Shown here one piece after another: positions 7,285 to 27,793 of a stretch of 30,824 bases of DNA. Under the pieces are notes generated by a model. It made no database searches. It was not told where the DNA came from and saw only the letters and a list, made by a program, of their open reading frames with translations. The stretch lies in assembly GCA_026387215.1 (NCBI GenBank), contig JAPLMC010000036.1, positions 1 to 30,824 on the forward strand. Reading direction: 5' to 3'. Source of the stretch: Candidatus Omnitrophota bacterium. Lineage in GTDB: Bacteria; Omnitrophota; Gorgyraeia; Gorgyraeales; Gorgyraeaceae. Positions within the stretch are counted from its first letter, which is position 1, and each line of letters begins with the position of its first letter. A program made the position numbers and the translations under genes.

Positions 7285-7348
7285 GTCCCTCGCGACTTAT
7301 GTATAAAACCATGGTCGCTCGGGACGAATTTGCCTTCTGCAAATTCGG
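7285..7348 (-). repeat. Two-hairpin CGAG repeat, copy A (directly 3' of tRNA-Ser-GCT)
   Basis: CCG AATTTGC AGAAG GCAAATT C GTCCCGAG CGAC CATGGTTTTATACATAA GTCG CGAGGGAC. Confidence 0.9.
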
Positions 7349-7439
7349 CGGAGAGGCAGGGATTCGAACCCTGGATACAGCTTTTCAACCGTATATCGGT
7401 TTAGCAAACCGACGCACTAGGCCACTATGCGACCTCTCC
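7349..7439 (-). tRNA. tRNA-Ser(GCT)
   Basis: GGAGAGG acceptor, TCGGT-TTGCTAA-ACCGA anticodon arm, long variable arm, GGTTCGAATCC T loop, G discriminator. CCA not encoded (CCG). Confidence 0.97.
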
Positions 7440-7511
7440 AAATTTACTTCGTAAATTTGGATCCCGAGTCAGTCTTGCCACCGCTTTGCAATAGCGGGCA
7501 AGACGAGGAAT
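7440..7511 (+). repeat. Two-hairpin CGAG repeat, copy B (directly 5' of tRNA-Ser-GCT, opposite strand)
   Basis: (CC)A AATTTAC TTC GTAAATT TGG ATCCCGAG ... TCTTGCCACCGCT TTGCAAT AGCGGGCAAGA CGAGGAAT; the inner hairpin differs from other copies. Confidence 0.8.
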
Positions 7512-7529
7512 CTATTGCTTCAGGGGTTA

Positions 7530-7558
7530 ATTCTATCATATATCAAGAACAGTATCAA
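7530..7558 (-). promoter_or_regulatory. Sigma70-type promoter of tRNA-Ser(GCT)
   Basis: TTGATA-17-TAGAAT with extended -10 TG. Confidence 0.65.
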
Positions 7559-7587
7559 TACTTGATTTACGAAACAGCTGTAAATAT

Positions 7588-7625
7588 AAAAAAGGGCAGT
7601 AGTTTAGAAACTAACTGCCCTTTTT
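7588..7625. terminator. Intrinsic terminator after the secreted-protein cluster (bidirectional shape)
   Basis: AAAAAGGGCAGT-AGTTT..AAACT-A-ACTGCCCTTTTT, with A/T tracts on both sides. Confidence 0.8.
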
Positions 7626-7639
7626 ATTAAAATACAATA

Positions 7640-8017
7640 CTATTGCTGATTCTCTATTGAAATCAAACCTAGTTCTTTGCCTTCTAGTTCAGCTGTAACC
7701 ATTACTTGAAGCTTGCTATCAGGTCTTTTCAAAAAAATCTCTACTTTAGCACTGCTTGCTTTGTCAAACTTTAAAAGTTTTCCATCGCTAAATATAGAAT
7801 ATCCGCTGGCCGCACATTTTGGCAAAAGAGCGCATTCTTTTGTATGCGTTTTTACAAAATCCGATAACTGGTTTTTATTCTGAGAACTTGCGCATTTATT
7901 ATCAATAATATAGCCTTTCAGCATTAAAGTTTTTTCGAATTTAGCTGGTGTTTCTCCGGCAAATGCCATTGACACTACAAAACAGGCTAATATCGCAAAA
8001 CAAAATATTTTCTTCAT
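7640..8017 (-). CDS. Secreted hypothetical protein with IDNKC...HTKECALLPKC motif
   Basis: Signal peptide (AFA); three clustered Cys plus His. Confidence 0.75.
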   Translation of the reverse strand: MKKIFCFAILACFVVSMAFAGETPAKFEKTLMLKGYIIDNKCASSQNKNQLSDFVKTHTKECALLPKCAASGYSIFSDGKLLKFDKASSAKVEIFLKRPDSKLQVMVTAELEGKELGLISIENQQ

Positions 8018-8040
8018 ATTTTTTCTACCCCTGGTAAAAT

Positions 8041-8409
8041 TTATTTCTGAATTCTTATAGAAGTCGCTTCGTTAACGCCTTCTTTTGTAGTGATATAAGC
8101 TACTTTTACATTTGAATCTTTCTTAACGCTATCCAAAAGCATAGTATTAGAATAAGCGTCATAAATAGTAGTGGTACTTTTTACTAAAAACGTGAGTTTC
8201 TGATTTTTCTCATTCTCTGCTGTAATTTCAGACTTGGTTCCTTTTGCTATGTCAGGTAAAGACACGGATTCTATTTTCCCCGTAAATACCCTGGTCTCAA
8301 TAGCCTTTGGCGCAGCTTTAGCAACAATTGGCAGCACAGTCTGCTCTGCTGCAAAACATAATGAACTTACAAAAGTAGCCACGATTATTGTTAAAAGTAT
8401 CTTTTTCAT
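8041..8409 (-). CDS. Secreted hypothetical beta-rich (OB-fold-like) protein
   Basis: Signal peptide; FTGKIESV...LTFLVKSTTTI...VKVAY pattern; RBS GGAGG. Confidence 0.7.
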   Translation of the reverse strand: MKKILLTIIVATFVSSLCFAAEQTVLPIVAKAAPKAIETRVFTGKIESVSLPDIAKGTKSEITAENEKNQKLTFLVKSTTTIYDAYSNTMLLDSVKKDSNVKVAYITTKEGVNEATSIRIQK

Positions 8410-8437
8410 ATCGTCCTCCCTTTTCTCTTTTTAAATT

Positions 8438-8665
8438 TTACTTATTAACCTTTGTGTCTTTTTTTACCTTCTTGGCTTTTACATGAGATTTTTCTTTCCT
8501 AACCTTAGTAGCTTTGGTTTTGGTTTTTACAACCTTTGCTTCTGATTTAACGACTTTACCGGCATCGGTTGTTTGACTTTGTATTTCTTCAGCAGCAAAA
8601 CTCCAAGTAGCAATGCTGACAAAAGAAATAAAAGCAATCATCATAACCTTTACTTTTGCGCTCAT
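8438..8665 (-). CDS. Small secreted Lys-rich, low-complexity protein
   Basis: Signal peptide (SFA), K/V/T-rich tail, RBS AAGGAGG. Confidence 0.7.
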   Translation of the reverse strand: MSAKVKVMMIAFISFVSIATWSFAAEEIQSQTTDAGKVVKSEAKVVKTKTKATKVRKEKSHVKAKKVKKDTKVNK

Positions 8666-8691
8666 AGAGCACCTCCTTTCTTATTAAAACA

Positions 8692-8737
8692 ATGATACAT
8701 TAAAGATGGTTAAATAATCATTAAAACAAAATTAAAA
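8692..8737 (-). promoter_or_regulatory. Putative response-regulator-activated promoter (triple direct repeat plus extended -10)
   Basis: TTTTAAT-N4-TTTTAAT-N4-ATTTAAC-N11(ending TG)-TATCAT; same geometry as 11492-11537. Confidence 0.7.
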
Positions 8738-8754
8738 AATTCTAATATTATTTT

Positions 8755-10184
8755 TCAGCAGATTTCCAAAGGAAAGGAGATAATAAAAGTAGTGCCATGG
8801 TTTAAAGTGCTTTCTGCTTCAATTTTGCCTTTATGGGCTTCGGCTATAGACCTGGCTATGCTTAATCCCAGCCCAAAACCACTCTGGTGGCCGGATTTAT
8901 CTACCTGATAGAAACGGTCAAAAATATGGCAAATATCTTTTTCAGGTATTCCTATGCCTGTATCGCTAACTCTTATATGGACAGAATCATTTTTCTTGGT
9001 TATACTTATGTTAACTTTTCCGCCCTGAGGATTATATTTTATTGCATTATCCAGTATATTCAAAAATAATCTTTTTAATTTATCTGCATCTCCGGAAATC
9101 ACTATTTTTTCCTGCTCCTTGATAGACATCTTTATGTTTTTCTGCATAGCCAAAATCTTTATATCATCTACAACGCTTTTAAGTAAAATAGTTATATCCA
9201 GCGTTTTGGTTTCAAGCATAACCGTATCATTTTCAAATCTAGCAAATATTAAAAGGTTTTCGACTATGCTAGAAATCCTATTTATCTCTTCTATGCTGCT
9301 CTTTAAAATATTCTCATATTCCTCTTTCGAGCGTATTTTTTTAAGTGCTACTTCTATTTCACCTTTTAAAATAGCTAAAGGAGTTTTAAGTTCATGCGCA
9401 AGATCTTCTATAAATTTACGCTGCGAGAAAAAAGCATATTCAAGCCTTGCAAGCATATCATTAAAAGTATCAGCCAGCCTGCTTATTTCGTCATTGGTAT
9501 CCGGAATACTTGTTCTTTTTTTTAAATTCTGGGCTGTTATCTGATGTATATCTTTTATGATTCTATCAACTGGATTCAAAGCAACTTTCGCAAAAAAAGC
9601 CCCTATTATACCTGTCAAGAATACCGTTAATGGAAGCAGCACAAACAACATTATCTTAAGACTAGCCAAAGCAGAATGTATGGAATTAAGAGGACACTGA
9701 GCATCCTTAAAGTAACTGGCTTAGACGCAGGGATTGCCGCTATCATAGTGTCAAAATATTTGTTACCGCGTGATACATAATTAAAAATATCTTTTGGTAA
9801 AGTTTCGAACTTCGGAATGTTCTTAGAAGAGGCTATGTGATTTCCTCTGACATTGAAAATCTGGACTATAATATCAAGGAGTTTAGGATCTCTTGATTTT
9901 TCTTCAACCCAACGCTGAGCAATTTTTGCAAAATTTATATTATCTATCTTGGTTAAACTTTCTACTGTAGAGTCGTCTTTTGATGCCTCTTGGCGTTCAG
10001 CCTCCCAGTATGTGTCAATAGAATTTGCAATTCCCTCTGCCCTTGATTCTAAAACATCATCCAAGTCTTCATGTAGCTTCTGGCTATATTTGTTATAAAG
10101 CATTGTGCTGAATAACAAAAGCGTCAAGCCCAATACTAGCATATACCAGAGGGTAATTTTAAATCGGATTGATTTTATAAACAT
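8755..10184 (-). pseudogene. CusS/CzcS-like sensor histidine kinase split into two ORFs (9651-10184 and 8755-9669)
   Basis: N ORF: TM1 plus sensor domain. C ORF: TM2, HAMP, HisKA (LAHELKTP) and HATPase (NILDNAIKY, DTGIGI, GFGLGLSI). -1 frame offset at about 9690. Confidence 0.8.
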
Positions 10185-10185
10185 C

Positions 10186-10854
10186 TTAATTTCTTAGGAT
10201 ATAACCCCTGCCTCTCAGGGTATATATTAATTTCTTTTTATGGTCATGGTCTATTTTATTGCGCAAATAATTAATATAAACATCTATGACATTCGTAAAG
10301 GTATCAAAATTAATATCCCAGACATGTTCCGAAATCATAGTCCTTGTTATAACTGTTCCTGCGTTACGCATAAGATATTCCAGAAGGGCATATTCTTTGT
10401 TGGTTAGCAAAATTTCTTTATTTCCGCGGGTAACCTTATGGGTTAATAAATCAAGTTCAAGGTCTTCTGCTACAAGCTTTGTAGGCTCTGGTAAATCTTT
10501 CTTACGCAAAAGAGCTCTTATCCTGGCTAAAAATTCTTCAAAAGCAAATGGCTTGGTTAGATAATCGTCTGCCCCTGCATCAAGACCTATTACTTTGTCT
10601 TTAACCGCACTCCTCGCAGTAAGCATAAGAATAAATGCGCTAATTTTTTCTTCCCTTATTTTTCGGCATAAATTAATACCGTCCATTTTTGGTAGCATTA
10701 CATCCAACACAATTAAATCATATTCATTTGTTTTTGCTAAAAAATAACCTTCCTCTCCGTCATATGCGATATCTACAATATATCCCTCTTCTTTTAAGCC
10801 GCGTTTAATAAAATCCGCTATTTTTTTCTCATCTTCTATAACAAGAATTCTCAT
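10186..10854 (-). CDS. OmpR/PhoB family response regulator (CusR/CzcR-like)
   Basis: IEDE, LDVMLP phospho-Asp, GADDYLTKPF, winged-helix VIDVYINYLRNKID...TLRGRGY. Confidence 0.95.
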   Translation of the reverse strand: MRILVIEDEKKIADFIKRGLKEEGYIVDIAYDGEEGYFLAKTNEYDLIVLDVMLPKMDGINLCRKIREEKISAFILMLTARSAVKDKVIGLDAGADDYLTKPFAFEEFLARIRALLRKKDLPEPTKLVAEDLELDLLTHKVTRGNKEILLTNKEYALLEYLMRNAGTVITRTMISEHVWDINFDTFTNVIDVYINYLRNKIDHDHKKKLIYTLRGRGYILRN

Positions 10855-10872
10855 TAGATGTATGGTCAGTGC

Positions 10873-10983
10873 TTATTTTTTACATTTAAGGCAATAGTTA
10901 TTATGCATACATTTTACAAAAGTCTTAACAAATACATATATAACTATTAATATCACTATTTGCCCAAACAATCCCCAGCTCAT
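10873..10983 (-). CDS. Unannotated 36-aa single-TM microprotein with C-M-H-x3-C-x2-C tail
   Basis: GGGAGG RBS 5 nt before the ATG; MSWGLFGQIVILIVIYVFVKTFVKCMHNNYCLKCKK*; fills the gap between operon genes. Confidence 0.75.
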   Translation of the reverse strand: MSWGLFGQIVILIVIYVFVKTFVKCMHNNYCLKCKK

Positions 10984-10997
10984 ATATACCTCCCTAT

Positions 10998-11426
10998 TTA
11001 AACTGTTTCGCCTGGTTTCAATGTTATATTATTCTCATTAAGATCCTTCTCTAGCTGCTTACGCAGTTCAATCTCATGGTGAAGCTGTCTGCTGATAATC
11101 CTTTCTGTTTCTGCCTTTGTATGAGCAACTCTTATAAGCTCTTCTTGTAGTCTTATGCACTCAGATGTTTCTTTCTTTAGCTCTATCCATCTACGCCAAG
11201 AGAAAATAGCAAAACCGATACTTAAAGTCAAAAGGAGTGTAATAATTTCATCGATATAAGTTATGGCTTTAGGATGTTTCTGAAATAACCCTACAATAAA
11301 CACGAATGCATTAAAAAAATAGGCAAGAACTGCTATCAGTATTGTAATAGTAGCAATCACAACCATATCTTTAAATGCATTTGTAAATCGGATTTTAGTG
11401 TTATTCTTTTTAAATATTTTGCGCAT
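10998..11426 (-). CDS. Membrane protein with two TM helices and C-terminal coiled coil (stand-alone sensor-like module)
   Basis: IDEIITLLLTLSIGFAIFSWRRWIELKKE followed by a helical E/K/R-rich tail. Confidence 0.7.
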   Translation of the reverse strand: MRKIFKKNNTKIRFTNAFKDMVVIATITILIAVLAYFFNAFVFIVGLFQKHPKAITYIDEIITLLLTLSIGFAIFSWRRWIELKKETSECIRLQEELIRVAHTKAETERIISRQLHHEIELRKQLEKDLNENNITLKPGETV

Positions 11427-11491
11427 CAGGTATTTTTATACAATTCTCTTTTATATTTTTGTTAGATTATACTATATTATGTTTAATTAAA

Positions 11492-11537
11492 ATTATACAT
11501 TATTAGATATTAAAAAAGAATTAAAATCAGATTAAAA
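11492..11537 (-). promoter_or_regulatory. Putative autoregulatory promoter of the two-component operon
   Basis: TTTTAAT-N4-TTTTAAT-N4-TTTTAAT-N11(ending TG)-TATAAT. Confidence 0.75.
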
Positions 11538-11594
11538 TATTTTAATACTTTAATAATTGAACAACACCGGCTTTGTCAAGCTCACAAAATAAAC

Positions 11595-14150
11595 TTAATC
11601 ATACCCGTATTTTTTGATAAACCAGGTTTTTACTATCTGCACAAAAAAGAGATAGGTAATAACCATAAGAAAAAGTGCAAGAAAATATAATGGGGGTGGG
11701 GCCACAAATCCAAAGGGTTTTGCAAGCGAAGAAAAAGGTATAAAAATTCCAAGGCTTACAATAAATATTGATGTAAAAATCAGGAAATTGCTAGGTCTAG
11801 ACTCAATAAAAGGAATTTTTCCTGTTCGGATAATGTGTATCACAAGAGTCTGGGTGCAGAGAGATTCTATAAACCATCCTGTGTGAAACAATTCAGCCTT
11901 AGCATGAAATATAAACAACATTATTCCATAAGTAAGAAAATCATATACAGAACTTATCGGCCCTATAATAAACATGAATTTCTTAATGGCTTTTATATTC
12001 CATGGCCTAGGATTTCTGATATATTCCTTGTCTACCTGATCGCTAGGAATAGCTATTTGGGACAGATCATAAAGAAAATTATTCAGAAGTATCTGTATGG
12101 GAAGCATGGGCAGAAACGGCAAAAATAAGCAACCGCCTGTCATGCTGAACATATTGCCGAAATTAGAGCTTGAGCCCATTTTTATATATTTTACAATATT
12201 CCCGAAGGTCTTTCTGCCTTCTATAACGCCGTCTTCAAGAACCATAAGGCTTTTCTTTAACAATATTATATCCGCCGACTCCTTGGCAATATCAACCACG
12301 TTATTTACCGATATGCCTACATCAGAGGCTTTTAATGCAGGCGCATCATTTATGCCATCACCCAGGTAGCCTACGATATGGCCATTTTCATGAAGCGCGT
12401 GTATCACCTTTTCTTTCTGAAGAGGCGAAAGCCTGGCAAATATATTTGTAGTTTTTACAAGCTCCTGGAGTTCCTTATCGCTGATTTTTTCAACAATATC
12501 TCCTGTAATAAGGCCTTTTGCATCAAGCCCCACGTCACTGCATATCTTCTTAGTAACCAATTCATTATCGCCTGTCAGGACTTTTACTTCTATACCTAGT
12601 TTATTCAAGGCAACTATAGCCCTCTTCGTAGAAGGCTTCGGAGGATCAAAGAACGCGACATAACCTTTAAGTATCAGGTCCTTTTCATCGTCCTTTGAGT
12701 AGACATCCTTCTTTACTTCAATATCTTTATATGCTATCGCTAATACCCTGAAGCCATCTGAGCTAAGATTGTCATATTCCTCTTTCAGATCTGATAATAT
12801 CAGATCCTCCATATCCAGTATTTCGCCTTCAAGCTCATACTTGGAACACCTTTTAAATATCTCTTCAGGCGCACCCTTTGAGATAAGCACATGCTTACCT
12901 TCCATATCCACCACTACAGACATTATTCTTCTGGAAAAATCAAAAGGTATCTCGTCTAACTTCCTGAACTGCTTAACTAATATCTTTTCATATTTAAGAA
13001 TGGCTCTGTCCAAAAGATTTTTCAGACCTGTCTGGTAAAAACTATTAATATACGCGAATCTGAGCACATCTTCATTTTCTTTTCTTATTACATCGCAATG
13101 TTTTTCAAGCACGATCTTATCCATCGTAAGGGTGCCTGTCTTATCAGTACACAATATATCCATAGCCCCGAAATTCTGTATTGAGTTAAGCCGCTTCACG
13201 ATAACCTGCTTTTTAGACATAGCTATCGCGCCTTTGGAGAGATTTATAGCAACAAGCATCGGCAGCATCTCAGGAGTAAGGCCAACAGCTACGCCCAAAG
13301 AAAAAAGTAAAGATTCTATAAAATCCCCGCGACGTAACGCGTTTATGCTGAATATAAATAAAACCATAAACAACATAGCTCGTATCATAAGCCATGTAAA
13401 TTGATGCACGCCTTTATCAAAGCTGGTCTCTACCCTTATTGTAGCGAGTTTTCGGGAAAGCTCCCCGAACTGAGTAGAAAGCCCTGTTTTTACAGCTATG
13501 CCTAACGCCGTGCCGCTTACTACGCTTGAACCCATGAAAGCTATATTTGCTAATTCTGACAATGAGGAATTCTTAGGAATCACAGGGCTTACGAATTTTT
13601 CTATAGGAAAAGCCTCTCCTGTCAAAGACGCCTGATTTATAAATAAATCTTTGCAGGATATTATCCTCAGGTCAGCGGGTATCATGTCTCCTGCTGATAA
13701 ATCAATAATATCTCCTGGGACTATCTCTTTGATTTTAATTTCTTTTGGCCTGGAATTCCTGAAGACAGTCGCTGTTGCGCGTACCATTTCACTTAGCTTT
13801 TCAGCTTCTTTCCCAGCGCGATATTCTTGTATAAAGGAAAGCAGCACGCTCATTATTGCCATGAGAGTTACTAAAATCGCGCTTATTTTTGCTCCGAAAA
13901 ACAACGAGAATCCTGCGATAATCAGAAGGACTATTACAAGCGGATTCACGAATTTGGAAAGAATTTGTATTAGGATAGTTCTTTTTTTCTTCTTGGCAGG
14001 CTCGTTGTGGCCGTATTCTAAAAGCCGTTTTTTAGCCTCTTCTTCGGATAGGCCTTTAAAAGAGGTGTTTAATCTTTCAAAAATAACCTCCATAGAACAG
14101 CCTGTATAATCAAAATCCCAGTTCTGGCGCTTCTCGCTTCCATTTGACAT
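11595..14150 (-). CDS. mgtA: Magnesium-translocating P-type ATPase (P3B)
   Basis: LTGEAFP, AVGLTPEMLP, LCTDKTGTLT, GDGINDAPAL, LLNNFLYD and TGWFIESLCTQ motifs typical of MgtA/MgtB. Confidence 0.95.
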   Translation of the reverse strand: MSNGSEKRQNWDFDYTGCSMEVIFERLNTSFKGLSEEEAKKRLLEYGHNEPAKKKKRTILIQILSKFVNPLVIVLLIIAGFSLFFGAKISAILVTLMAIMSVLLSFIQEYRAGKEAEKLSEMVRATATVFRNSRPKEIKIKEIVPGDIIDLSAGDMIPADLRIISCKDLFINQASLTGEAFPIEKFVSPVIPKNSSLSELANIAFMGSSVVSGTALGIAVKTGLSTQFGELSRKLATIRVETSFDKGVHQFTWLMIRAMLFMVLFIFSINALRRGDFIESLLFSLGVAVGLTPEMLPMLVAINLSKGAIAMSKKQVIVKRLNSIQNFGAMDILCTDKTGTLTMDKIVLEKHCDVIRKENEDVLRFAYINSFYQTGLKNLLDRAILKYEKILVKQFRKLDEIPFDFSRRIMSVVVDMEGKHVLISKGAPEEIFKRCSKYELEGEILDMEDLILSDLKEEYDNLSSDGFRVLAIAYKDIEVKKDVYSKDDEKDLILKGYVAFFDPPKPSTKRAIVALNKLGIEVKVLTGDNELVTKKICSDVGLDAKGLITGDIVEKISDKELQELVKTTNIFARLSPLQKEKVIHALHENGHIVGYLGDGINDAPALKASDVGISVNNVVDIAKESADIILLKKSLMVLEDGVIEGRKTFGNIVKYIKMGSSSNFGNMFSMTGGCLFLPFLPMLPIQILLNNFLYDLSQIAIPSDQVDKEYIRNPRPWNIKAIKKFMFIIGPISSVYDFLTYGIMLFIFHAKAELFHTGWFIESLCTQTLVIHIIRTGKIPFIESRPSNFLIFTSIFIVSLGIFIPFSSLAKPFGFVAPPPLYFLALFLMVITYLFFVQIVKTWFIKKYGYD

Positions 14151-14169
14151 AAATAGTATTAGATAAAAA

Positions 14170-14628
14170 TTAAGACTTGTTCCTCTTTATTTTAAAAAAC
14201 TCCTTTATTAAAGAGCTTGCTTCGCGCTCTAGAATCCCGTTTTTAACTTCAACCTTGTGGTTTAATTTTTTATTATTTAAGATCTTAAAGACTGATTTAT
14301 GCGCGCCTGTCTTTAGATCTTTTGCAGCGTATATTAAATTTTTTATACGGCTTAAAACCATTGCTCCTGCACACATACTGCAGGGTTCAAGCGTAGAATA
14401 CATTGTGCAATCCAGCAGCCTTTCGCTTTGTAAAAAATTTGCTGCCTGCGTAATAGCTATTATTTCTGCATGAGCAGTGGGGTCTTTTAACATTTTTATC
14501 TGATTATGCGCCTTAGCTATTATTTCATTATTATGCACAATAATAGCCCCTACAGGCACTTCATCAGCGTCAAATGCCTTTGCAGCTTCTTTCAAAGCTT
14601 CTTTCATGTAGTATTCGTGATTCTTCAT
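14170..14628 (-). CDS. tadA: tRNA adenosine(34) deaminase
   Basis: EVPVGA, DPTAHAE, TLEPCSMC motifs. Confidence 0.95.
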   Translation of the reverse strand: MKNHEYYMKEALKEAAKAFDADEVPVGAIIVHNNEIIAKAHNQIKMLKDPTAHAEIIAITQAANFLQSERLLDCTMYSTLEPCSMCAGAMVLSRIKNLIYAAKDLKTGAHKSVFKILNNKKLNHKVEVKNGILEREASSLIKEFFKIKRNKS

Positions 14629-14640
14629 AAAAAGTATAAT

Positions 14641-14703
14641 GCTCCTCGCGACTGCTTATAAAACTATGGTTGCTCGGGACGAATTTTACTTCGTAAAATT
14701 CGG
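14641..14703 (-). repeat. Two-hairpin CGAG repeat, copy C (directly 3' of tRNA-Ser-CGA)
   Basis: CCG AATTTTAC GAA GTAAAATT C GTCCCGAG CAAC CATAGTTTTATAAGCA GTCG CGAGGAGC. Confidence 0.9.
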
Positions 14704-14788
14704 CGGAAGGAGCAGGATTTGAACCTGCGAGGCCTTTCAGCCTGGGCGTTTTCGAGACGCCTGGATTAAACCACTCTCCCATCCTTCC
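14704..14788 (-). tRNA. tRNA-Ser(CGA)
   Basis: GGAAGGA acceptor, GGCGT-CTCGAAA-ACGCC anticodon arm, variable arm, GGTTCAAATCC. CCA not encoded (CCG). Confidence 0.97.
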
Positions 14789-14926
14789 GACTTTCCTATC
14801 CGTTTGCCAAAAAAGTAATAGCAGAAACCATTATAATTCAACCCCACCCATATTTAAAGCTCTTTTTCATTCCCCCAATAAACTTGACAAAACCGTCATT
14901 GTTAGAATGTCAAGATTATTGGAAAT

Positions 14927-14966
14927 AAAAAACGGCGATTGTGATAGCAACCACTAATCGCCGTTT
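14927..14966 (-). terminator. Intrinsic terminator after tRNA-fMet
   Basis: AAACGGCGATT-(A)GTG...CAC-AATCGCCGTTT followed by a U-tract on the minus strand. Confidence 0.8.
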
Positions 14967-14970
14967 CATA

Positions 14971-15291
<321 letters not shown>

Positions 15292-15313
15292 GTTTTATTT
15301 AATTGTATTTTGC

Positions 15314-15342: not shown

Positions 15343-15358
15343 TGCTTTTTACCTACTC

Positions 15359-15410: not shown

Positions 15411-16975
<1,565 letters not shown>

Positions 16976-17053: not shown

Positions 17054-17117
17054 TTATCTCACAAAAATAAGTCCCTATTTCCAAATCGCTAGCAAGTAAA
17101 ATTATGCAACGATGGAC

Positions 17118-17193
17118 TTGCCTCGGTGTCGAACGCTCTGATAGCTGGCACTTTGGTGCGAAGCGGGATAAAATTTTGTTTTGCAAAATTTGG
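17118..17193 (-). repeat. Degenerate two-hairpin repeat, copy G (ftsH leader, abutting the RBS)
   Basis: CCA AATTTTGC AAA ACAAAATT TT ATCCCG ... CGAGGCAA. Confidence 0.55.
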
Positions 17194-20679: not shown

Positions 20680-21005
20680 ACAAAAACCTCATCTATCTTC
20701 TTTAAAATATCTCTTTTAGAAGCAGCACCTACGATTCTAGCCACCTCTTCACCCTTACTGAAAAATATAAGCGTAGGTATATTCATAACGCTGAGATTAG
20801 TTGCTACATCCATAGCGTCGTCTATATTAAGCTTCGCTATCTTATATTTACCTTTATATTCGTTCGCTATTTCTTCTATTGTAGGCGCCAACATTTTGCA
20901 CGGCATACACCACGTAGCCCAAAAATCCACAATTACAGGTTTATCTGACTTTAATACAACTTCTTTAAAAATATCATCACTTAACTCCAGAACATTTCCT
21001 GCCAT
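20676..21005 (-). CDS. trxA: Thioredoxin (WCMPC)
   Basis: VDFWATWCMPCK, IPTL. Start re-called to ATG 21005 behind GGAGG. Confidence 0.93.
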   Translation of the reverse strand: MAGNVLELSDDIFKEVVLKSDKPVIVDFWATWCMPCKMLAPTIEEIANEYKGKYKIAKLNIDDAMDVATNLSVMNIPTLIFFSKGEEVARIVGAASKRDILKKIDEVFV

Positions 21006-21013
21006 ATTGCCTC

Positions 21014-21079
21014 CCAAATTTTGTGCAACAAAATTTAACCCCAAGAGCTACACTGTCTTTACATAAAGTCGCAAGGGAC
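21014..21079 (+). repeat. Two-hairpin repeat, copy H (fills the rnfB-trxA spacer; CAAG/CAAG variant)
   Basis: CCA AATTTTGT GCA ACAAAATT TA ACCCCAAG AGCTAC ACTGTCTTTACATAAA GTCG CAAGGGAC. Confidence 0.75.
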
Positions 21080-21082
21080 ATT

Positions 21083-21868
21083 CTACTCTCTTGCAATACA
21101 TTTAGTCGGACACTTTTCAATAACTGCCTGCCATGGCGTATCTGATTTTGCTTTAGTATAATCTGCTTTCGAGAGATTGTTTTCCACTATAAATGCGCCT
21201 ACAGAAAGCTTTTCGCAAATCTTACAGCCAATACAACCAACCGGACATATAGATTTTACCACCACTGCCTTATCCTGCGAAAGACATTTTACATAAATCT
21301 TATGATCAGCGTTTTCTAAAATAATTATTTTTTTCGGGCAAGTTTTTACGCATTTGCCGCAAGCAGTACATTTGGAACCATTAACTACTGGAATATTATT
21401 TTCGTTTAAACGAATTGCATCAAAAGGGCATATTGATACACAGTCTCCAAAACCAAGGCAGCCGAATCTGCATTCTTTGTTTCCGCCAGCCAGTAAACTT
21501 ACTCCGGCACATTTTTTTAATCCGCTATATTCATATTTATCTGAAGATCTTTTACCTCCATTACATCTTATTCGCGCTATTTTTTTCTTTTTTACTTTTA
21601 CTTCCGCCCCCAGAATTTCCGCTATTCTATTGTAAACTTCCTGTCCGCCAGGCGCGCAAGATGTGATTTCGGATTTTCCGTTTACTATCGCTTCCGCTAA
21701 ACTAGCGCATCCTGCCATACCACAGGCCCCGCAATTCGCGCCAGGAAGAGCATGTATTACCCTGTCTATCTTAGGGTCTATCTCCACCCTGAAAATATTT
21801 GAGGCGTATGCAAGCCCCAGGCCGAATAAAAGCCCCATTAATGACATTGTTAAAATAGGTATTAACAT
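21083..21868 (-). CDS. rnfB: Rnf complex subunit B
   Basis: LPGANCGACGMAGC, CRFGCLGFGDC, CTACGKC ferredoxin motifs. Confidence 0.95.
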   Translation of the reverse strand: MLIPILTMSLMGLLFGLGLAYASNIFRVEIDPKIDRVIHALPGANCGACGMAGCASLAEAIVNGKSEITSCAPGGQEVYNRIAEILGAEVKVKKKKIARIRCNGGKRSSDKYEYSGLKKCAGVSLLAGGNKECRFGCLGFGDCVSICPFDAIRLNENNIPVVNGSKCTACGKCVKTCPKKIIILENADHKIYVKCLSQDKAVVVKSICPVGCIGCKICEKLSVGAFIVENNLSKADYTKAKSDTPWQAVIEKCPTKCIARE

Positions 21869-21871
21869 AGG

Positions 21872-22480
21872 TTAAAATCTGAATCCTGAGAATCCCATAA
21901 ATGCCATTGACATTAAAGATGCAATTATAAAAGAAATAGGCGCATCCTTAAAAGATTTTGGTACATCACAGAGTTCAAGCCTCTCTCTTATCCCTGACAT
22001 GAATAACATTACAAGTATATAACCCAATCCCACGCAAAAACCCTGCAGGGCTGATAACGTAAAACTAGTTAAGGTGTTAAGTCCAGGTTTAAAAAACATC
22101 TCGCTATTCAAAACAGCTACGCCAAGCACTGCGCAATTGACAGTAATAAGAGGAAGATATATGCCTAGAGTCCTATAAAGCGCCTGGCTGAATTTTTTTA
22201 TGACCATCTCTACAAGCTGCACAAATGAGGCAATAACCAGAATAAATGAAATTGTCCTTAAGTATTCTATATGACAAGGGACCAGTATAAAGTTATAAAT
22301 AGCCCAAGTAATTATAGAAGCGCAGGTAGTTACAAAGGTAACTGAAACTCCCATATAAAGAGCAGGCTTAGTTTCTTTTGAAATGCCTATAAACGAACAA
22401 AGCCCCAGGAACTTGGATAGGATAAAATTATTTATAAAGATTGCACCAATTATAACCGATAAAAACATTGAAAGATCCAT
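21872..22480 (-). CDS. rnfA: Rnf complex subunit A
   Basis: NNFILSKFLGLC, YLPLITVNCAVLG, IRERL motifs. Confidence 0.95.
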   Translation of the reverse strand: MDLSMFLSVIIGAIFINNFILSKFLGLCSFIGISKETKPALYMGVSVTFVTTCASIITWAIYNFILVPCHIEYLRTISFILVIASFVQLVEMVIKKFSQALYRTLGIYLPLITVNCAVLGVAVLNSEMFFKPGLNTLTSFTLSALQGFCVGLGYILVMLFMSGIRERLELCDVPKSFKDAPISFIIASLMSMAFMGFSGFRF

Positions 22481-23079
22481 TATGTAGTGCTCCTTTTCCT
22501 GGCCAGGAAATTAATGCCACCTATTAATAACCCTATTACTAAAAGCGCACCCGGAGCCAAAACCAGATACAAAACAGGCTCATAGCTCTTTACAATTAAA
22601 AGTCCGAAAAGAGTGCCATTCCCAAAGATCTCTCTTATAGCTGATATAAGCAAAAGAGCTAATGTAAAACCAATTCCCATACCTAATGCATCCAGCAATG
22701 AACTAAAAACGCCTTCCTTGCACGCAAATGCTTCTGCCCTTCCAAGCACAATACAATTCACTACTATAAGTGGTACAAATATGCCAAGAGATTTTGAAAG
22801 TTCAGGCGCGTAAGCCTTCATCATAAGTTCTACAATTGTAACAAACGTAGCTATTATTACGATAAAGCACGGGATTCTAATCTGGTCAGGTATGGATTTC
22901 CTAACTAAAGATATAATAACATTTGAACCTATCAAAACAAAAGTAGCGGCAACCCCCATTCCAAGACCGTTTACAACGCTAGTAGAAACCGCAAGCGTAG
23001 GACAAAGTCCGAGAACAAGGCGAAACGTGGGATTTTCGCTGCCTATGCCTTTAAAAAACTCTTTAAGCAATTTCTTCAT
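22480..23079 (-). CDS. rnfE: Rnf complex subunit E
   Basis: ENPTFRLVLGLCPTLAV, PLIVVNCIVLGRAEAFA motifs. Confidence 0.95.
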   Translation of the reverse strand: MKKLLKEFFKGIGSENPTFRLVLGLCPTLAVSTSVVNGLGMGVAATFVLIGSNVIISLVRKSIPDQIRIPCFIVIIATFVTIVELMMKAYAPELSKSLGIFVPLIVVNCIVLGRAEAFACKEGVFSSLLDALGMGIGFTLALLLISAIREIFGNGTLFGLLIVKSYEPVLYLVLAPGALLVIGLLIGGINFLARKRSTT

Positions 23080-24014
23080 TTTTTTATAAACCCATATTTT
23101 TGGGTTTTTGTAAACCTATCTATTATAGGCACAGCTGCATTCATAAATAATATTGCGTAGCAAACGCCTTCGGGATAGCTCCCTCTCAATCTTATGATAG
23201 CGGTCAATATACCACAGCCTATACCAAAAACAATCTTACCTTTTTTCGTAAGAGGCGAAGTCACATAATCAGTTGCCATAAAAAAAGCTCCAAGGATAAG
23301 CCCCCCCGCCATTATATTAAAAATAAAATCCCCTTTAAAAAATCCATCTTTTCCAAATACCCAGGTGATAACTCCAACTGTGCCTATAAAACTTAAAGGT
23401 ATGTGTAGGGAAATTATTTTCGTAATCAATAAAAATAGCGCCCCTATAATTAGTGCTATCACACAAACTTCGCCTAAAGAGCCTGCTCTATTCCCAAGAA
23501 ATAAATCCATATAACTAAAGTGCGCGCTTGTTTCTTTAGCCAAAGGCGTTGCACTGGATACTGCATCAGGCCACCATCTTGGATTTTTCCATGTAGTCAT
23601 ATAAACAGGCCATGAGATTTGTAAAAATGCCCTTCCCACAAGAGCTGGGTTAAATATATTCTGGCCTAATCCTCCGAAAATCTGTTTTCCTAAAGCAATA
23701 CTTACAACGCCTCCTACAACAGGTATCCAGAAAGGTATCTGGGGTGGAAGATTATATGCTAGAAGCAACCCTGTTAATATAGCGCTTCCATCCAAAACTG
23801 TTTTAGGGTTTCTATTTCTGAATTTCAAAAATAAAGCTTCTGTGAAAACACAGGAAAGAACAGATAAAATCATCACATTCAGGCTTGATATGCCAAATAT
23901 ATAGATACCTGCTATGCCTGCTGGCACAAGAGACCACACTACAGCCCACATGATATTTTTCGTAGTCTGATTTGATTTAATATGCGGACTTTGGGAAACA
24001 GTAAGTTTATTCAT
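23076..24014 (-). CDS. rnfD: Rnf complex subunit D
   Basis: SPH start, KQIFGGLGQNIFNPA, DAVSSATPL (FMN-Thr), FMATD, YPEGV motifs. Confidence 0.95.
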   Translation of the reverse strand: MNKLTVSQSPHIKSNQTTKNIMWAVVWSLVPAGIAGIYIFGISSLNVMILSVLSCVFTEALFLKFRNRNPKTVLDGSAILTGLLLAYNLPPQIPFWIPVVGGVVSIALGKQIFGGLGQNIFNPALVGRAFLQISWPVYMTTWKNPRWWPDAVSSATPLAKETSAHFSYMDLFLGNRAGSLGEVCVIALIIGALFLLITKIISLHIPLSFIGTVGVITWVFGKDGFFKGDFIFNIMAGGLILGAFFMATDYVTSPLTKKGKIVFGIGCGILTAIIRLRGSYPEGVCYAILFMNAAVPIIDRFTKTQKYGFIKK

Positions 24015-24624
24015 CGCGATTATTTAATATTTCCAATCCACTTGATTTTATAGAATCCAGCACTGCTCTGGATGATATAGTAGCGCCTGTAATTGCTTGA
24101 ATTCCGCCATTAGATAATTCCAACTCTTTTACATTCCTGTTTGTGAATTGTTCTGTAAAATACGGGGATAGTATTTCTTTGGGATGTTTTTCTTTTATAA
24201 ATATTTCTCTCAAAGAACTAAACAATGTCCTGGTAGAAACAATCTCTATGATTTTAGCACCAAGGCCTGGGGTTTCATTCTGAGAAAGAACTCTCACGCC
24301 TGTAATAGTCCCGTCTTTTCTGATCCCTACCATTATTTCTATTACACTCGAGTATCCGTACTTTTTAGCAATATATATATAACCCTGTGGTTCTGGGTTA
24401 TCTCCCTTTAATACTTTCCAATATTTTATTGTATCGCTTTCCTTAACAAGCTCTATCTTATTTCCTATTGTTTCTGGCATTACTTGCTTAAGAGCTTCTT
24501 CTTGAATCATGCTTTCTTGTTTTTGTATCTTAGATTTAGTAAGATTATAAGTTCCTGCTAGAATCGTAGCAGCTATTAAATTTACAAAAAATAAAATAAA
24601 CGCAAATTTTAAAATAATCTTCAT
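24007..24624 (-). CDS. rnfG: Rnf complex subunit G
   Basis: One TM, ETPGLG, IQAITGATISS FMN-attachment motif. Confidence 0.92.
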   Translation of the reverse strand: MKIILKFAFILFFVNLIAATILAGTYNLTKSKIQKQESMIQEEALKQVMPETIGNKIELVKESDTIKYWKVLKGDNPEPQGYIYIAKKYGYSSVIEIMVGIRKDGTITGVRVLSQNETPGLGAKIIEIVSTRTLFSSLREIFIKEKHPKEILSPYFTEQFTNRNVKELELSNGGIQAITGATISSRAVLDSIKSSGLEILNNRDE

Positions 24625-24642
24625 TGCCTTATATATTCAAGA

Positions 24643-25959
24643 CTAAGCCTTGATCTTCACTTTTGCAAGCTTTATAAGCTGCACAAGAGGTATATTAGAC
24701 GGACATACAAAACTGCAAGAACCGCATTCAATGCAGTCAAAAGGATCATATGAACTTGCTATATCAAACTTCGCTTTTTTAGAGCTAAGCCCTATCATGC
24801 AAGGCATAAGCCCTACAGGGCATGCTTCAATACATCTGGAGCACCTGATACATTCAAGCTCTTTTTCTTCAAGTTTGAATTTTTTATCCAGAACAAGTAT
24901 GCCTGATGTACCTTTAATAATAGGCGCTTTCGAGTTACTCTGCGCCACTCCTGTCATTGGTCCGCCCATTACAATCTTATAAATATCGAGTTTTGGATTT
25001 AGGCCGCAATAGTCCAGGATATCTTTTATAGGAGTACCTATCCTAACTAAGATATTTTTTGCTATATTGGGAAAACCGCCTGATATGGTTATAACTCTTT
25101 CGTATAAAGGTTTTCTTAAATAAATCGCTTCATAAATAGCAAAAATTGTCTGCACGTTAATTACCACAATTCCTATATCAAGAGGTAGCCCACCTGAAGG
25201 AACCTCTTTGTTCAATAAAGTTTTTATGAGCTGTTTCTCCCCTCCCTGCGGATATTTGGTCTTTAAGCTTACTACTTTCGGTTTTAAATCATCGGCTTTC
25301 ATCCTGAATACCACGCTCTTTATGCTTTCTATTGCATCTAGCTTATTTTCCTCTATGCCTATGATGATATTTTTAACTCCTAAAACATTTGCTACCAATT
25401 GAACGCCCAGAATTATTTCTTTTGATTTTTCAAGCATCAAGCGATGGTCGCAAGTAAGAAAAGGCTCACATTCTGCGCCATTTATAATAAGTGAGATTAT
25501 TTTCTTAGCAGGTGGAGGGTTCAATTTTACTAACGTTGGAAACGCAGCGCCTCCCAAACCTACAATACCTGCTTCTTTTATTAAAGTCATTATCTCCTCT
25601 TTTGACAAAGCTGAAATATCTTTGGCGGAAACTGAATTTAAATATGCTTTTGTATCCAGGCCATCTGACTCTATGATGATTGCTCTGGATAAACCTATTA
25701 TAGGGTGGGGGCTATCTTCGATTGTAACGACTTTGCCGGAAATGCTTGAATGCAGATTGCTGGATATAAACCCTTTTGCCTGAGCTATTAAAGAGCCTGT
25801 CTTAACGCTGTCTCCTACGCTAACTACAGGCTCTGAAGGAGCTCCTGTATGCTGAGATAGGAGCAATATTGCCTTTTTGGGCGGCAGAGCTGTTTCTATT
25901 TTCTTATTTTTTGTAATATCTTTATAATCAGGGGGGTGTATGAAATTTACGCTAGCCAT
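24643..25959 (-). CDS. rnfC: Rnf complex subunit C
   Basis: GIVGLGGAAFPT, NGAECEPFLTCD, YPQGGEKQLI, CIRCSRC and CIECGSC. Confidence 0.96.
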   Translation of the reverse strand: MASVNFIHPPDYKDITKNKKIETALPPKKAILLLSQHTGAPSEPVVSVGDSVKTGSLIAQAKGFISSNLHSSISGKVVTIEDSPHPIIGLSRAIIIESDGLDTKAYLNSVSAKDISALSKEEIMTLIKEAGIVGLGGAAFPTLVKLNPPPAKKIISLIINGAECEPFLTCDHRLMLEKSKEIILGVQLVANVLGVKNIIIGIEENKLDAIESIKSVVFRMKADDLKPKVVSLKTKYPQGGEKQLIKTLLNKEVPSGGLPLDIGIVVINVQTIFAIYEAIYLRKPLYERVITISGGFPNIAKNILVRIGTPIKDILDYCGLNPKLDIYKIVMGGPMTGVAQSNSKAPIIKGTSGILVLDKKFKLEEKELECIRCSRCIEACPVGLMPCMIGLSSKKAKFDIASSYDPFDCIECGSCSFVCPSNIPLVQLIKLAKVKIKA

Positions 25960-25967
25960 ATTATTTA

Positions 25968-26018
25968 ATTATACAGAAAAGCTGGTTTCTTGACAACCTT
26001 TTTAAGTTAGGGTATACT
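25968..26018. promoter_or_regulatory. Overlapping divergent sigma70 promoters (rnf / Cys-rich gene)
   Basis: Minus: TTGTCA(25991-96)-17-TATAAT(25968-73). Plus: TTGACA(25990-95)-17-TATACT(26013-18). The -35 boxes overlap. Confidence 0.75.
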
Positions 26019-26037
26019 TATGGTACAGGAGAATAAA

Positions 26038-26205
26038 ATGAGCATTGACAATTTCGGAAAATGTTGCACAGATTGTCAGATTTATTGGACATGCGAAACC
26101 AAGTGGTACAGAGGCGAGCGGCATGAAGATGACGCATGCTGCTCTACCTGCAATTACTATTCAAAATGTACCGAATCCAACAAATCCAAAAAGAAACAGA
26201 AATAA
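26038..26205 (+). CDS. 55-aa Cys-rich protein with two CCxxCxxYxxC repeats
   Basis: Own promoter, AGGAG RBS, ATG at 26038; KCCTDCQIYWTC and ACCSTCNYYSKC. Confidence 0.8.
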   Translation: MSIDNFGKCCTDCQIYWTCETKWYRGERHEDDACCSTCNYYSKCTESNKSKKKQK

Positions 26206-26213
26206 CTACCCTT

Positions 26214-27467
26214 CTAAACTTTTTCCTCTTCGTTTCCTAACCTTATTAATTTTATCAAACCTATAATAGAAAATAAAATCCCTGTTGTTATAAGGACCCA
26301 ATCTCCGCCTATCTTCTCAGCTATAAGAGACGCAAGAAACATAAATAAAAGAAATCCTACATGCATCACTATCTCGAGAGAACTAAAAATCCTCCCTCTC
26401 ATTTCATCATGCGTTACCTCATGAAGCAGAGTGTTGGAAGATACGATTATGGGGGCGCTAAAAATTCCAAGTACTATTGATAATAGGCCGGCTATAAAAA
26501 AAGAAGGTATAAATTTTAGGCATATAGTAAATAGCACTATCGTTAATCCTGTAGTTAATAGCCCAAAATTGATTACCTTTCTCTTTGAAAACTTTGATCC
26601 AAACTTCCCGTATATAATGGAGCCCAGAAATAACCCTACTCCTAAAAACATCACAAGCAACCCGAGATGCTTAGTAGATGATTGTAGCGCTTTCTGTATA
26701 AAAACTATTATCACTATGTAAATAGAGCCAACCCCTGCCATAATAAGAAACATTGTGTTTGCAACCATTCTTATGTCTTTATGACCTTTCAAATACTCAA
26801 TGCCCTCTTTTATATCTCCAACAATAGTTCTCCTGGAGATATCTGTAAGCTTCGTGCTGGCTCCGCTCAGCTCTATATTTTCTTTTAATTTAACTGCTAC
26901 AAAAAATACCAGTATTGCGGATATAAAATAACTTGCTGAGTCTATATAAAATCCTGCCTGAGGCCCAAACACAGCAACTATTATTCCGCTAAACCCAAAG
27001 CTAACTATCGTAGCAATCATCATAGTTGTAGAGGATAGCGAATTCGCTAAAAGAAGTTTATCTTTATGGACAATATCTGGAATTATAGATAGTTTTGAAG
27101 GTACAAAAAATCTTGTTACAGAAAAAATTATAAATACGATTATGTATATTGGAACCATGCTAGTGGAGTATTTAACAATCAAGGGAATCGTAAGTACCAG
27201 CAAGCCTCTTATGATGTCACAAGCAATCATAGTAGTTCTCCTATTCCATCTATCCACATATATGCCTGCTATAGGACCTATAATAAATACCGGGATTATT
27301 GTAAAGGAGAGAAGCTTTGCCAACTCTATTGTAGAGCCAGGAGTGCGGATATAAATAAGCCCTATCAAAGCCATTTGGTTCAGTCTGTCTCCAAAATTTG
27401 AAACTATTTGGGCAAACCATAGGAGAAAAAAATTTTTATTTTTTAAAAGTTCTCGGACGTGGGCCAT
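26214..27467 (-). CDS. MFS transporter (12 TM, DHA3/MFS_3-like)
   Basis: NFFLLWFAQIVSNFGD, GIYVDRWNRR motif A, 12 hydrophobic segments. Confidence 0.9.
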   Translation of the reverse strand: MAHVRELLKNKNFFLLWFAQIVSNFGDRLNQMALIGLIYIRTPGSTIELAKLLSFTIIPVFIIGPIAGIYVDRWNRRTTMIACDIIRGLLVLTIPLIVKYSTSMVPIYIIVFIIFSVTRFFVPSKLSIIPDIVHKDKLLLANSLSSTTMMIATIVSFGFSGIIVAVFGPQAGFYIDSASYFISAILVFFVAVKLKENIELSGASTKLTDISRRTIVGDIKEGIEYLKGHKDIRMVANTMFLIMAGVGSIYIVIIVFIQKALQSSTKHLGLLVMFLGVGLFLGSIIYGKFGSKFSKRKVINFGLLTTGLTIVLFTICLKFIPSFFIAGLLSIVLGIFSAPIIVSSNTLLHEVTHDEMRGRIFSSLEIVMHVGFLLFMFLASLIAEKIGGDWVLITTGILFSIIGLIKLIRLGNEEEKV

Positions 27468-27512
27468 TAAAATTAACCTTTTTCTAAAACCTAGATAGTT
27501 GAAATAGTTAAC

Positions 27513-27579
27513 ACCCCTTGCAGCATAATAGAAAAGACAAGGGCTACTCGGGACTCATTCTGCCTATTCGGCAGAATTT
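27513..27579 (-). repeat. Two-hairpin CGAG repeat, copy F (follows the duplicated tRNA-Thr 3' end)
   Basis: AAATTCTGCC GAATA GGCAGAAT GA GTCCCGAG TAGC CCTTGTCTTTTCTATTAT GCTG CAAGGGGT. Confidence 0.8.
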
Positions 27580-27600
27580 TGGAACCGATGAGTGGATTTG
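27580..27600 (-). repeat. Duplicated 3' end of tRNA-Thr (att-like direct repeat)
   Basis: CAAATCCACTCATCGGTTCCA matches tRNA-Thr 27794-27814 (CAAATCCACTCATCGGCTCCA) at 20/21 nt. Confidence 0.85.
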
Positions 27601-27604
27601 CGAA

Positions 27605-27665
27605 CCCAGCCGTAAGGTTGGGCGAGTCTCGAGCGGCAATATTTTTACTTTGCGCCGCGAGGGAA
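27605..27665 (+). repeat. Two-hairpin CGAG repeat, copy E
   Basis: CCCAGCC GTAA GGTTGGG CGA GTCTCGAG CGGC AATATTTTTACTTTGC GCCG CGAGGGAA. Confidence 0.75.
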
Positions 27666-27730
27666 ACCGCCGATTAAGCAAATACTTAAACAGCTCTCAT
27701 TTGTATTTAATACAAAGTTGCTCATCAGTA

Positions 27731-27793
27731 TTCCCTCGCAACTACATGCAAAATCATAGTTGCTCGGGATCAAATTTTACTTTGTAAAATTTG
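27731..27793 (-). repeat. Two-hairpin CGAG repeat, copy D (directly 3' of tRNA-Thr)
   Basis: CA AATTTTAC AAA GTAAAATT TG ATCCCGAG CAAC TATGATTTTGCATGTA GTTG CGAGGGAA. Confidence 0.9.

Follow-up and report, generated by a model that had tools for sequence, protein, structure and literature searches.

Eight copies of a two-hairpin repeat in an Omnitrophota contig

The bacteria of the phylum Omnitrophota have not been cultured; most of them are ultra-small, and their genomes are compact. The stretch of DNA analyzed here (the window, 30,824 nt) is contig C30 of a genome of Candidatus Omnitrophota (the source genome, G000), which comprises 1.05 Mb on 114 contigs and is 91% complete. The window carries four tRNA genes and eight copies (A to H) of a short structured repeat consisting of two hairpins, H1 and H2. 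These eight copies had been described in an initial annotation of the sequence, and all of them were confirmed, with coordinates that agree to within 1–2 nt. Their alignment shows the architecture described there: an A/T-rich hairpin (H1) is followed, after 1–3 bases, by TCCCGAG and a short covarying stem; a loop separates this stem from its return arm, and CRAGGGA comes last. The pattern TCCCGAG-N18-34-CRAGGR is present four times in the window, compared to 0.03 occurrences expected from shuffled sequences. A covariance model built on 25 copies recovers copies A, B, C, D, F, G and H, and copy E was recovered by nhmmer as a match to H2 only.

The repeat had also been reported to be attached to tRNA ends. 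Of the four tRNA genes, this is the case for tRNA-Ser(gct), tRNA-Ser(cga) and tRNA-Thr(cgt), and it also holds for a tRNA-Thr fragment; each of them carries a copy that starts at the CCA position or overlaps it. According to ARAGORN and Rfam, the three tRNAs end exactly where copies A, C and D begin. Copy A (7284..7348, minus strand; H1 and a short H2) is located directly 3' of tRNA-Ser(gct) (7347..7439, minus strand) with the junction GCC/GAATTT, where the slash marks the border of the element. Copy B (7440..7511, plus strand; H1 and a 48-nt variant of H2) abuts the antisense of the 5' end of the same tRNA (CCTCTCC/AAATTT) and lies between its promoter and its mature 5' end; the tRNA gene is thus bracketed by copies A and B. 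Copy C (14641..14703, minus strand; H1 and a short H2) lies between the 3' end of tRNA-Ser(cga) (14702..14788, minus strand) and the start of the next gene. Copy D (27731..27793, minus strand; H1 and a short H2) starts directly 3' of the encoded CCA of tRNA-Thr(cgt) (27794..27869, minus strand). Copy F (27513..27579, minus strand) follows a duplicated 3' fragment of tRNA-Thr (TTCCA/AAATTC), and in copy E (27605..27665, plus strand), which contains H2, a GC-rich hairpin with a GTAA loop replaces H1.

The other two copies are found at protein genes. Copy G (17118..17192, minus strand) had been called degenerate, and it indeed scores only 31 bits with the covariance model: its H1 (17171–17191) is intact and abuts the ribosome binding site (RBS) of an ftsH-like gene, and its H2 has decayed. 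One metagenomic DNA contig (run X4) skips positions 17067–17170, so that the decayed H2 is gone and H1 is kept; the shorter side of this contig is only 30 nt. Copy H (21015..21079, plus strand) lies antisense between two minus-strand genes with the junction CCTCC/CAAATTTT.

Further features were observed next to the tRNA genes. Both tRNA-Ser genes read GCCG at their 3' ends (7344–7348 and 14699–14703), which means that no CCA is encoded at that end here; four genomes of the same genus (G003, G004, G008 and G009) read GCCA. The GCCG was not caused by insertion, since the congeners G005 and G012 have it too, at tRNA-Ser(cga) sites that are empty. The 3' side of tRNA-Thr comprises copies D, E and F together with a duplicated 21-nt tRNA end, and a tyrosine recombinase of 350 aa is encoded immediately upstream of this tRNA (27951–29003, minus strand; Phage_integrase, 129 bits). 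A match to a group I intron (Rfam, 61.8 bits; 15054–15238, minus strand) was found where the initial annotation had placed an interrupted initiator tRNA. The depth of public contigs is very high there, and this region is therefore probably shared with other organisms.

Conserved structure of the two hairpins

Throughout the family the unit is ~65–70 nt long (about 68 nt), and its two hairpins are unlike each other. H1 is an A/T-rich palindromic hairpin, typically C-AAATTTTGC-GAA-GCAAAATTT-G, and H2 follows after one or two bases. The foot of H2 is conserved and consists of TCCC, a tandem G.A mismatch in the context of CGAG and CGAG, and a covarying 5-bp stem. Its interior is exchangeable, with recurring subtypes of ~37, 48 and 52 nt that are each present at several loci; in the 52-nt subtype an inverted H2 is nested in the loop. 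The unit terminates in GGGAC(C).

The covariation of both hairpins claimed in the initial annotation was reproduced in two alignments, one of 64 distinct copies from many genomes fitted to the covariance model, the other a MAFFT alignment of 25 copies that is independent of the model. In both of them, H1 and H2 covary strongly. In the alignment of 64 copies, 97.7% of the cells are paired, whereas shuffles give 84.1% and sliding of the partner gives no more than 53.5%; cells with double changes number 129, versus 24.2 ± 3.9, and compensatory changes were found at 17 of 19 pairs. Since this alignment was fitted to the structure, its figures lean towards it. In the MAFFT alignment, 90% of the cells are paired, compared to 82% after shuffling of columns and less than 51% with slid partners, and there are 40 cells with double changes, versus 12.6 ± 3.7.

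The tandem G.A pairs, which had likewise been proposed before, are nearly invariant (G in 64, A in 63, G in 60 and A in 63 of the 64 copies). They lie within the helix on the strand on which the element was first read; on the opposite strand, the tandem would read U.C/C.U. On the strand with the G.A pairs, the H1 loops are purine-rich (GAA, AAA or GNRA-like) in 45 copies and pyrimidine-rich in five. The most frequent H1 core is GCGAAGC, which is a classical, extraordinarily stable DNA mini-hairpin (PMC13037366, PMC3201870).

A repeat family specific to Candidatus Omnitrophota

A search of the whole genome had been suggested together with the first description of the copies. With an nhmmer hidden Markov model (HMM) made from 33 seeds (E<1e-3, non-overlapping matches counted), 87 copies were detected in the source genome, and 85 were found with the covariance model. 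The copies amount to ~0.6% of the genome, and most of them are located antisense at RBSs rather than at tRNAs. The covariance model was also run over the congeners (n=12, completeness 61–97%), the family and the class. All 12 congeners contain the repeat, with 3–99 copies each, and matches are present in 20 of the 24 genomes of the family and, in a patchy manner, in scattered families of the class. A scan for the exact pattern in one genome per species revealed true copies in metagenome-assembled genomes (MAGs) labelled Candidatus Omnitrophota or Omnitrophica. A few true copies were found under other phylum labels, for example in one MAG labelled Nitrospirae and two labelled Planctomycetes, and the remaining pattern matches, in taxa with high GC content, look like chance matches. 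The copies constitute a family of short non-coding repeats that is specific to Candidatus Omnitrophota.

A described RNA family was rejected as an identification, because Rfam 15 gave no match at the gathering score for the copies of the window and none at E≤1 for 20 copies. Loci that contain H2 only were checked for known RNAs, and none were found. Viral contigs yielded three chance matches only, and metagenome contigs around the neighbouring gene for a protein of 851 aa (80 loci) contained no copies and showed no synteny. A literature search found no paper on repeats in Omnitrophota.

Position of the copies relative to genes

The contexts of the 87 copies were sorted using a crude map of open reading frames (ORFs) and ARAGORN. 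Fifty copies are located between co-directional genes in antisense orientation, with H1 abutting the complement of the Shine-Dalgarno sequence (SD) at zero spacing (CCTCC/CAAATTTT). On the gene strand, the order at these sites is stop codon, a few bases, H2', H1', GGGAGG, N5-8 and ATG. Seven copies follow tRNA 3' ends in sense orientation (Glu, Lys twice, Trp, Ser twice and Thr), with H1 at or overlapping CCA; if two further ones are counted, at the tRNA-Thr fragment and at a tRNA-Leu, seven to nine copies follow tRNAs. Six more are preceded by another copy and lie directly behind its GGGRCC end. One copy is placed against the antisense of the tmRNA 5' end, much as copy B of the window is with tRNA-Ser. 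Ten copies consist of H2 only or are truncated at the 5' end, and the remaining 13 have other contexts, being mostly composites with a nested element that is bounded by terminal inverted repeats (TIRs). Almost all copies are intergenic; only two of the ~87 are found inside genes.

The sole feature common to these contexts is the text located 5' of the element, which is CCTCC, CTCCT, NCCA or NCCG, CCCC or GRCC. Other Omnitrophota genomes show the same context, CAT-N5-8-CCTCC/CAAATTTT, with CTCC present at 46 and CAT at 47 of 64 copies. At the first position of H1, the base changes together with the one it pairs with (C-G, G-C or A-T) and is thus part of the element rather than of the target. 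Read in element orientation, the 3' flank is rich in T, except for copies after tRNAs. GGGACC follows 45% of the copies, and CC precedes most of them. Both orientations occur within one window of 30 kb, and the orientation tracks the local context.

Empty sites, composite copies and copies within genes

The initial annotation had proposed to look for empty sites at orthologous loci. Nine sites were compared, and most congeners are empty at them. The identity between the compared genomes is ~75–85%, and the element boundaries are accurate to about ±1 nt. The site of copy H is filled only in the source genome: five congeners are empty, with 12–26 nt from stop to start codon and the sequence CCTCC/TTTTATT..., one congener has a lone H1 and another one a partial element. 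At the 3' site of tRNA-Ser(cga), G003 is filled and G011 contains a variant copy, and G005, G008, G009 and G012 are empty. The 3' site of tRNA-Ser(gct) is empty in G004 and G009. The site of copy B is empty in G003, G004 and G008, and the tRNA promoter is found there at normal distance. On contig C75, five intergenic copies and one copy within a gene of the source genome are absent from all congener sequences read (two to five per site); at site 9227, the coordinates suggest extra sequence in G009, the portion of which that was read is unlike the element. The cleanest pair reads CATagcttCTCC/CAAATTTT...AAAGAC/TTTACAT when filled and CATagcttCTCC/TTTATAT when empty, which shows an insertion exactly after CTCC without target duplication. 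Empty sites already have the T-rich 3' flank.

Other small repeats were observed at some of these loci. In G011, G005 and G003 (loci L151, L153 and L156), a different palindromic repeat of ~100 nt follows CCTCCC at the position that corresponds to 21005–21083 of the window; it is rich in TTCGTCG and CGACGAA and unrelated to the element. The spot upstream of the SD is a niche common to several repeat families. Beside the copy at C75:3591 (~3560–3590, L281), a tandem spacer duplication of ~14 nt (TTTACATAATC and TTTTTCATATAATC) is present, which is absent from five empty congeners and may be a by-product of insertion or unrelated. Directly beside two copies of the same contig (C75:9160–9230 and 15540–15630), short hairpins such as ATCCAGCTGCATCAGCTGGAT were found that are absent from the congeners, which suggests that they are further small inserted elements.

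Eight copies of the source genome are composites (C4 near 13812, 19066, 20819 and 21134; C83; two on C94; C54), in which an element of 48 nt is nested, always at one and the same position within the loop of H1. The nested element has 12-bp TIRs (CCCCGCTCTTTT...AAAAGAGCGGGG) and a 5-bp TGAAA duplication and represents a classical miniature inverted-repeat transposable element (MITE). Six of the eight composites abut a different RBS each (CCTCC), and two follow an earlier copy. Since the same nested element is located at the same point beside different RBSs, the composite has been copied as a unit.

Parts of the element are also found within coding regions. A gene with a Proton_antipo_M domain (NuoL/Mrp-like; G000:C4:29997-31838, L260:1495-3339, minus strand) contains an H2 module of 54 nt in frame in a loop. 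The insert adds 18 residues and is absent from nine congeners; at the same loop, G002 and G005 have other palindromic inserts. A PurL-like gene (G000:C75:27-2762) also contains a 54-nt H2 module in frame, and most of its orthologues are without it.

A probable mobile element with a YCC target

Taken together, the sites, the descent of the copies and the coding inserts are best read as the traces of a selfish, copy-generating DNA element, a conclusion that we regard as very probable. A non-autonomous mobile element with a YCC(R) target had been considered in the initial annotation, and this proposal is upheld by the empty sites, by the same junction after unrelated YCC texts and by the spread of the composite as a unit. 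The explanation that we favour, with a probability of about 0.6, is that the copies are short mobile DNA elements, non-coding and non-autonomous, which use YCC as target and would move by HUH-like strand transfer. In this explanation, existing copies give rise to new ones, which are inserted in one orientation, immediately 3' of YCC in A/T-rich DNA and without detectable target duplication. The YCC texts at which they land are mostly the SD complement (CCTCC), the NCCA ends of tRNAs, the antisense of RNA genes starting with GGAG or GGGG, and the GGGRCC end of an earlier copy. Since YCC texts in a compact genome lie mostly at those sites, the mirror-image distribution of the copies would be explained. 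The hairpins would be recognized on single-stranded DNA, namely on the strand with the GNA triloops and the G.A pairs. The enzyme would be a strand transferase that binds hairpins, and it may work like a Y1/HUH enzyme of the IS200/IS605 or RAYT (REP-associated tyrosine transposase) type. The gene for this enzyme may be unassembled or located outside the examined regions. The HUH-type mechanism taken on its own, proposed by analogy, is less likely than not; a recombinase acting on a folded H2 is given a low probability, and the rest goes to an enzyme of another kind.

Several findings count against this explanation. A Y1/HUH enzyme had been named in the initial annotation as an example of a mobilizer, and this was not confirmed. 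All 13 genomes of the genus have Y1_Tnp genes, which speaks in favour, but no H1–H2 or H2 copy was detected by HMM and H2 regular expression within ~±1.2–1.5 kb of their 36 loci. The only Y1 gene of the source genome is RAYT-like (294 aa, HIH and YxHxNP motifs; 59 bits with NF047646, below the cut-off of 80). Six such RAYT-like genes of ~300 aa, from the source genome and five congeners, are flanked in inverted orientation by a different repeat. Among 41 genomes, the presence of Y1_Tnp does not track the element: G037 contains 10 copies and has no Y1 match, and several genomes that are free of the element have Y1 genes. A TnpB domain was found in none of five genomes searched and IS110 in one of the five. 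No autonomous candidate of the type H1...ORF...H2 was found, and solo H1 was restricted to two short cases in the source genome, with none in 147 loci. MAGs often lack multicopy insertion sequences, however, and the missing autonomous partner is therefore weak evidence.

Further points against the favoured explanation concern the strand and the comparison of genomes. The stem mismatches show no asymmetry between G.U (20) and A.C (16), and predicted RNA folding favours the strand read first by only ~1 kcal/mol, so that strand-specific folding is weakly supported. H1 and H2 are dissimilar, whereas the ends of IS608 carry similar hairpins, and unlike the lagging-strand bias of IS608, the orientation of the element appears to follow the local context and not one replication strand. 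Gain and loss at a single site are not formally separable in genomes that are ~75–85% identical.

The repeat beside the RAYT-like genes is ~40 nt long and reads AACTTGACA-N-CTNACAATGT-N-TTTTGTCAAGTTTATGG (CTTGACA..ACAATGT..TGTCAAG), with at least 121 copies in the source genome. Three copies are located upstream and one, in inverted orientation, downstream of the RAYT-like gene in locus L306 (G000:C1:5961-7150), and a diverged copy is present at ~14881–14918 of the window. Since the same arrangement recurs in five congeners, gene and repeat together look like a REPtron.

Alternative explanations

A new type of hairpin transposon, with an enzyme that is not among the recognizable Y1, TnpB and IS110 genes and with YCC as landing mark, is unlikely.

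Somewhat less probable is a functional RNA module that is kept by selection, as a structured intercistronic leader at the SD or as a 3' trailer of tRNAs, and whose spread is secondary. A tRNA-trailer RNA motif, as suggested in the initial annotation, is not supported as the primary explanation, since only seven to nine of the ~87 copies follow tRNAs and most are antisense to local transcription. Host transcripts carry the reverse complement as a leader of ~68 nt, with its last hairpin extending up to the first G of the SD. Behind tRNAs, they carry the sense strand as a structured trailer. The fixed position relative to the SD inside operons, the strong covariation of both stems and the conservation of the H2 foot across families of a class would all fit such a module. 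However, no single RNA is common to all copies, since the same strand is sense after tRNAs and antisense in mRNAs. The invariant G.A pairs become U.C/C.U on the mRNA strand, there is no excess of G.U over A.C, and no Rfam family was matched even at E≤1. The element may plausibly affect mRNA stability, processing or translation in a secondary manner. The use of opposite strands in the two contexts, the species-specific occupancy, with nine sites mostly empty in the congeners, and the copies in frame within coding regions argue that function is not why the family exists. The copy in a tRNA 5' leader is also at odds with an RNA module.

Lower still we place mobility by means of a site-specific recombinase, for which H2 would serve as a folded attC-like site, or the element would be the target or donor site of an IS110-type enzyme whose crossover lies in a short CC core. 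In outline, H2 is attC-like, as its foot is conserved, it has an internal mismatch and its terminal structure varies, but cassettes or arrays and GTTRRRY or RYYYAAC boxes were not found. The tyrosine recombinase encoded beside the tRNA-Thr with copies D, E and F gives weak matches to Xer and integron-integrase models, the latter with 76 bits against a cut-off of 265. Insertion is orientation-specific and without evident duplication, which is in line with such an enzyme, and GGGACC after 45% of the copies together with CC before most of them fits a shared core; yet the CC at the 3' end is present in under half of the copies, and IS110 in only one of the five genomes.

It is very improbable that the element is not mobile but a protein-binding DNA site or a terminator or insulator that arose repeatedly or was spread by gene conversion. 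The conserved CGAG...CGAG boxes could be a binding site, and the T-rich 3' flank would also fit, but empty sites have this flank as well, and in 20 kb of the window, 20 terminator-like sites were located without any overlap with a copy. In addition, the compensatory changes suggest that a single strand folds, and not that a duplex is recognized, and it is difficult to account for the composites and the inserts in genes unless copying takes place. An intrinsic terminator was rejected on the basis of the terminator-like sites and the empty sites, and because the T flank is missing after tRNAs.

Possible consequences for the host

How a hairpin element chooses its target site can be seen clearly in this natural family, which also provides a marker of very recent genome change between congeners. 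If the new type of hairpin transposon with YCC as landing mark is the correct explanation, a standard structured leader has been set against the SD of ~5% of the genes and behind ~40% of the assembled tRNAs, and gene expression in these nanobacteria has probably been affected. The ~50 natural constructs with a hairpin next to the SD make an effect on expression testable. Once identified, the mobilizing enzyme, with its short YCC target and a tiny, cargo-free substrate, would be useful for work on the transposition of single strands, and engineering might possibly benefit as well. The same intergenic niches are occupied by no fewer than three other families of small repeats, so that such elements shape the operon spacers in Omnitrophota.

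Comparison with known repeats and transposable elements

Like the element described here, repetitive extragenic palindromic (REP) sequences and REPINs are short, abundant, extragenic hairpin repeats with a conserved stem mismatch and a copy number that varies between relatives. Their mobilization is presumed to occur on single-stranded DNA, and RAYTs cleave at a dinucleotide beside the REP hairpin (PMC8266576). In contrast to REP sequences, the element has no conserved tetranucleotide of the GTAG type; the bases before H2 vary (GA, TA, AA, AG or CG), and H1 starts at the junction. It also differs in consisting of two dissimilar hairpins instead of an inverted REP doublet, and in its nucleotide-precise insertion beside CTCC or CCA. 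In a REPtron the transposase gene would be flanked by the element, whereas the RAYT-like genes of the genus are flanked by another repeat.

On insertion of IS200/IS605 elements, the left end is joined to the 3' side of a specific tetra- or pentanucleotide, and these elements have subterminal hairpins, no TIRs and no target duplication (PMC5027513, PMC3201880). The element resembles them and the PATEs in its single orientation, its left end 3' of YCC, the absence of TIRs and duplication, and a hairpin near each end. Unlike in IS200/IS605, the foot of its hairpin abuts the junction, leaving no room for a 5' guide tetranucleotide, and no autonomous copy bearing tnpA or tnpB was found. The cognate transposase that membership in these groups requires, as part of a REPtron or of an autonomous Y1 insertion sequence with matching ends, was thus not found for the element.

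With the palindromic elements of Rickettsia (RPEs), it shares the small palindromic form, the reduced host genome and the occurrence in frame and translated within genes (PMC10969869 for RPE). Only two of the ~87 copies are located in genes, however, and the sequences are unrelated. RPEs are not known to prefer RBS or CCA junctions.

MITEs and mycobacterial interspersed repetitive units (MIRUs) are dispersed non-coding repeats that are often co-transcribed with their flanks, and MIRUs are intercistronic with a fixed orientation. In contrast to MIRUs and to classical MITEs (Correia/NEMIS, ERIC, RUP and BOX), the element has neither TIRs nor a target-site duplication: its ends (CAAATTTT... and ...GGGAC) do not form inverted repeats, and the pairs of filled and empty sites show no duplication. 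This contrast is shown directly by the composites, since a true MITE with TIRs and target-site duplication is nested in some copies of the element.

Integron attC sites share with the element a structure that is conserved above sequence, a conserved foot, an unpaired internal spacer, a variable terminal part and strand-specific features. The element differs from them in its solitary copies, without R and L box consensus, cassettes, arrays or a match to an integron integrase above the cut-off. Among known kinds, its way of working is closest to that of REP sequences and PATEs, its behaviour is partly that of the RPEs of Rickettsia, and it is set apart from them by its two unlike hairpins and its placement at RBSs and CCA ends.

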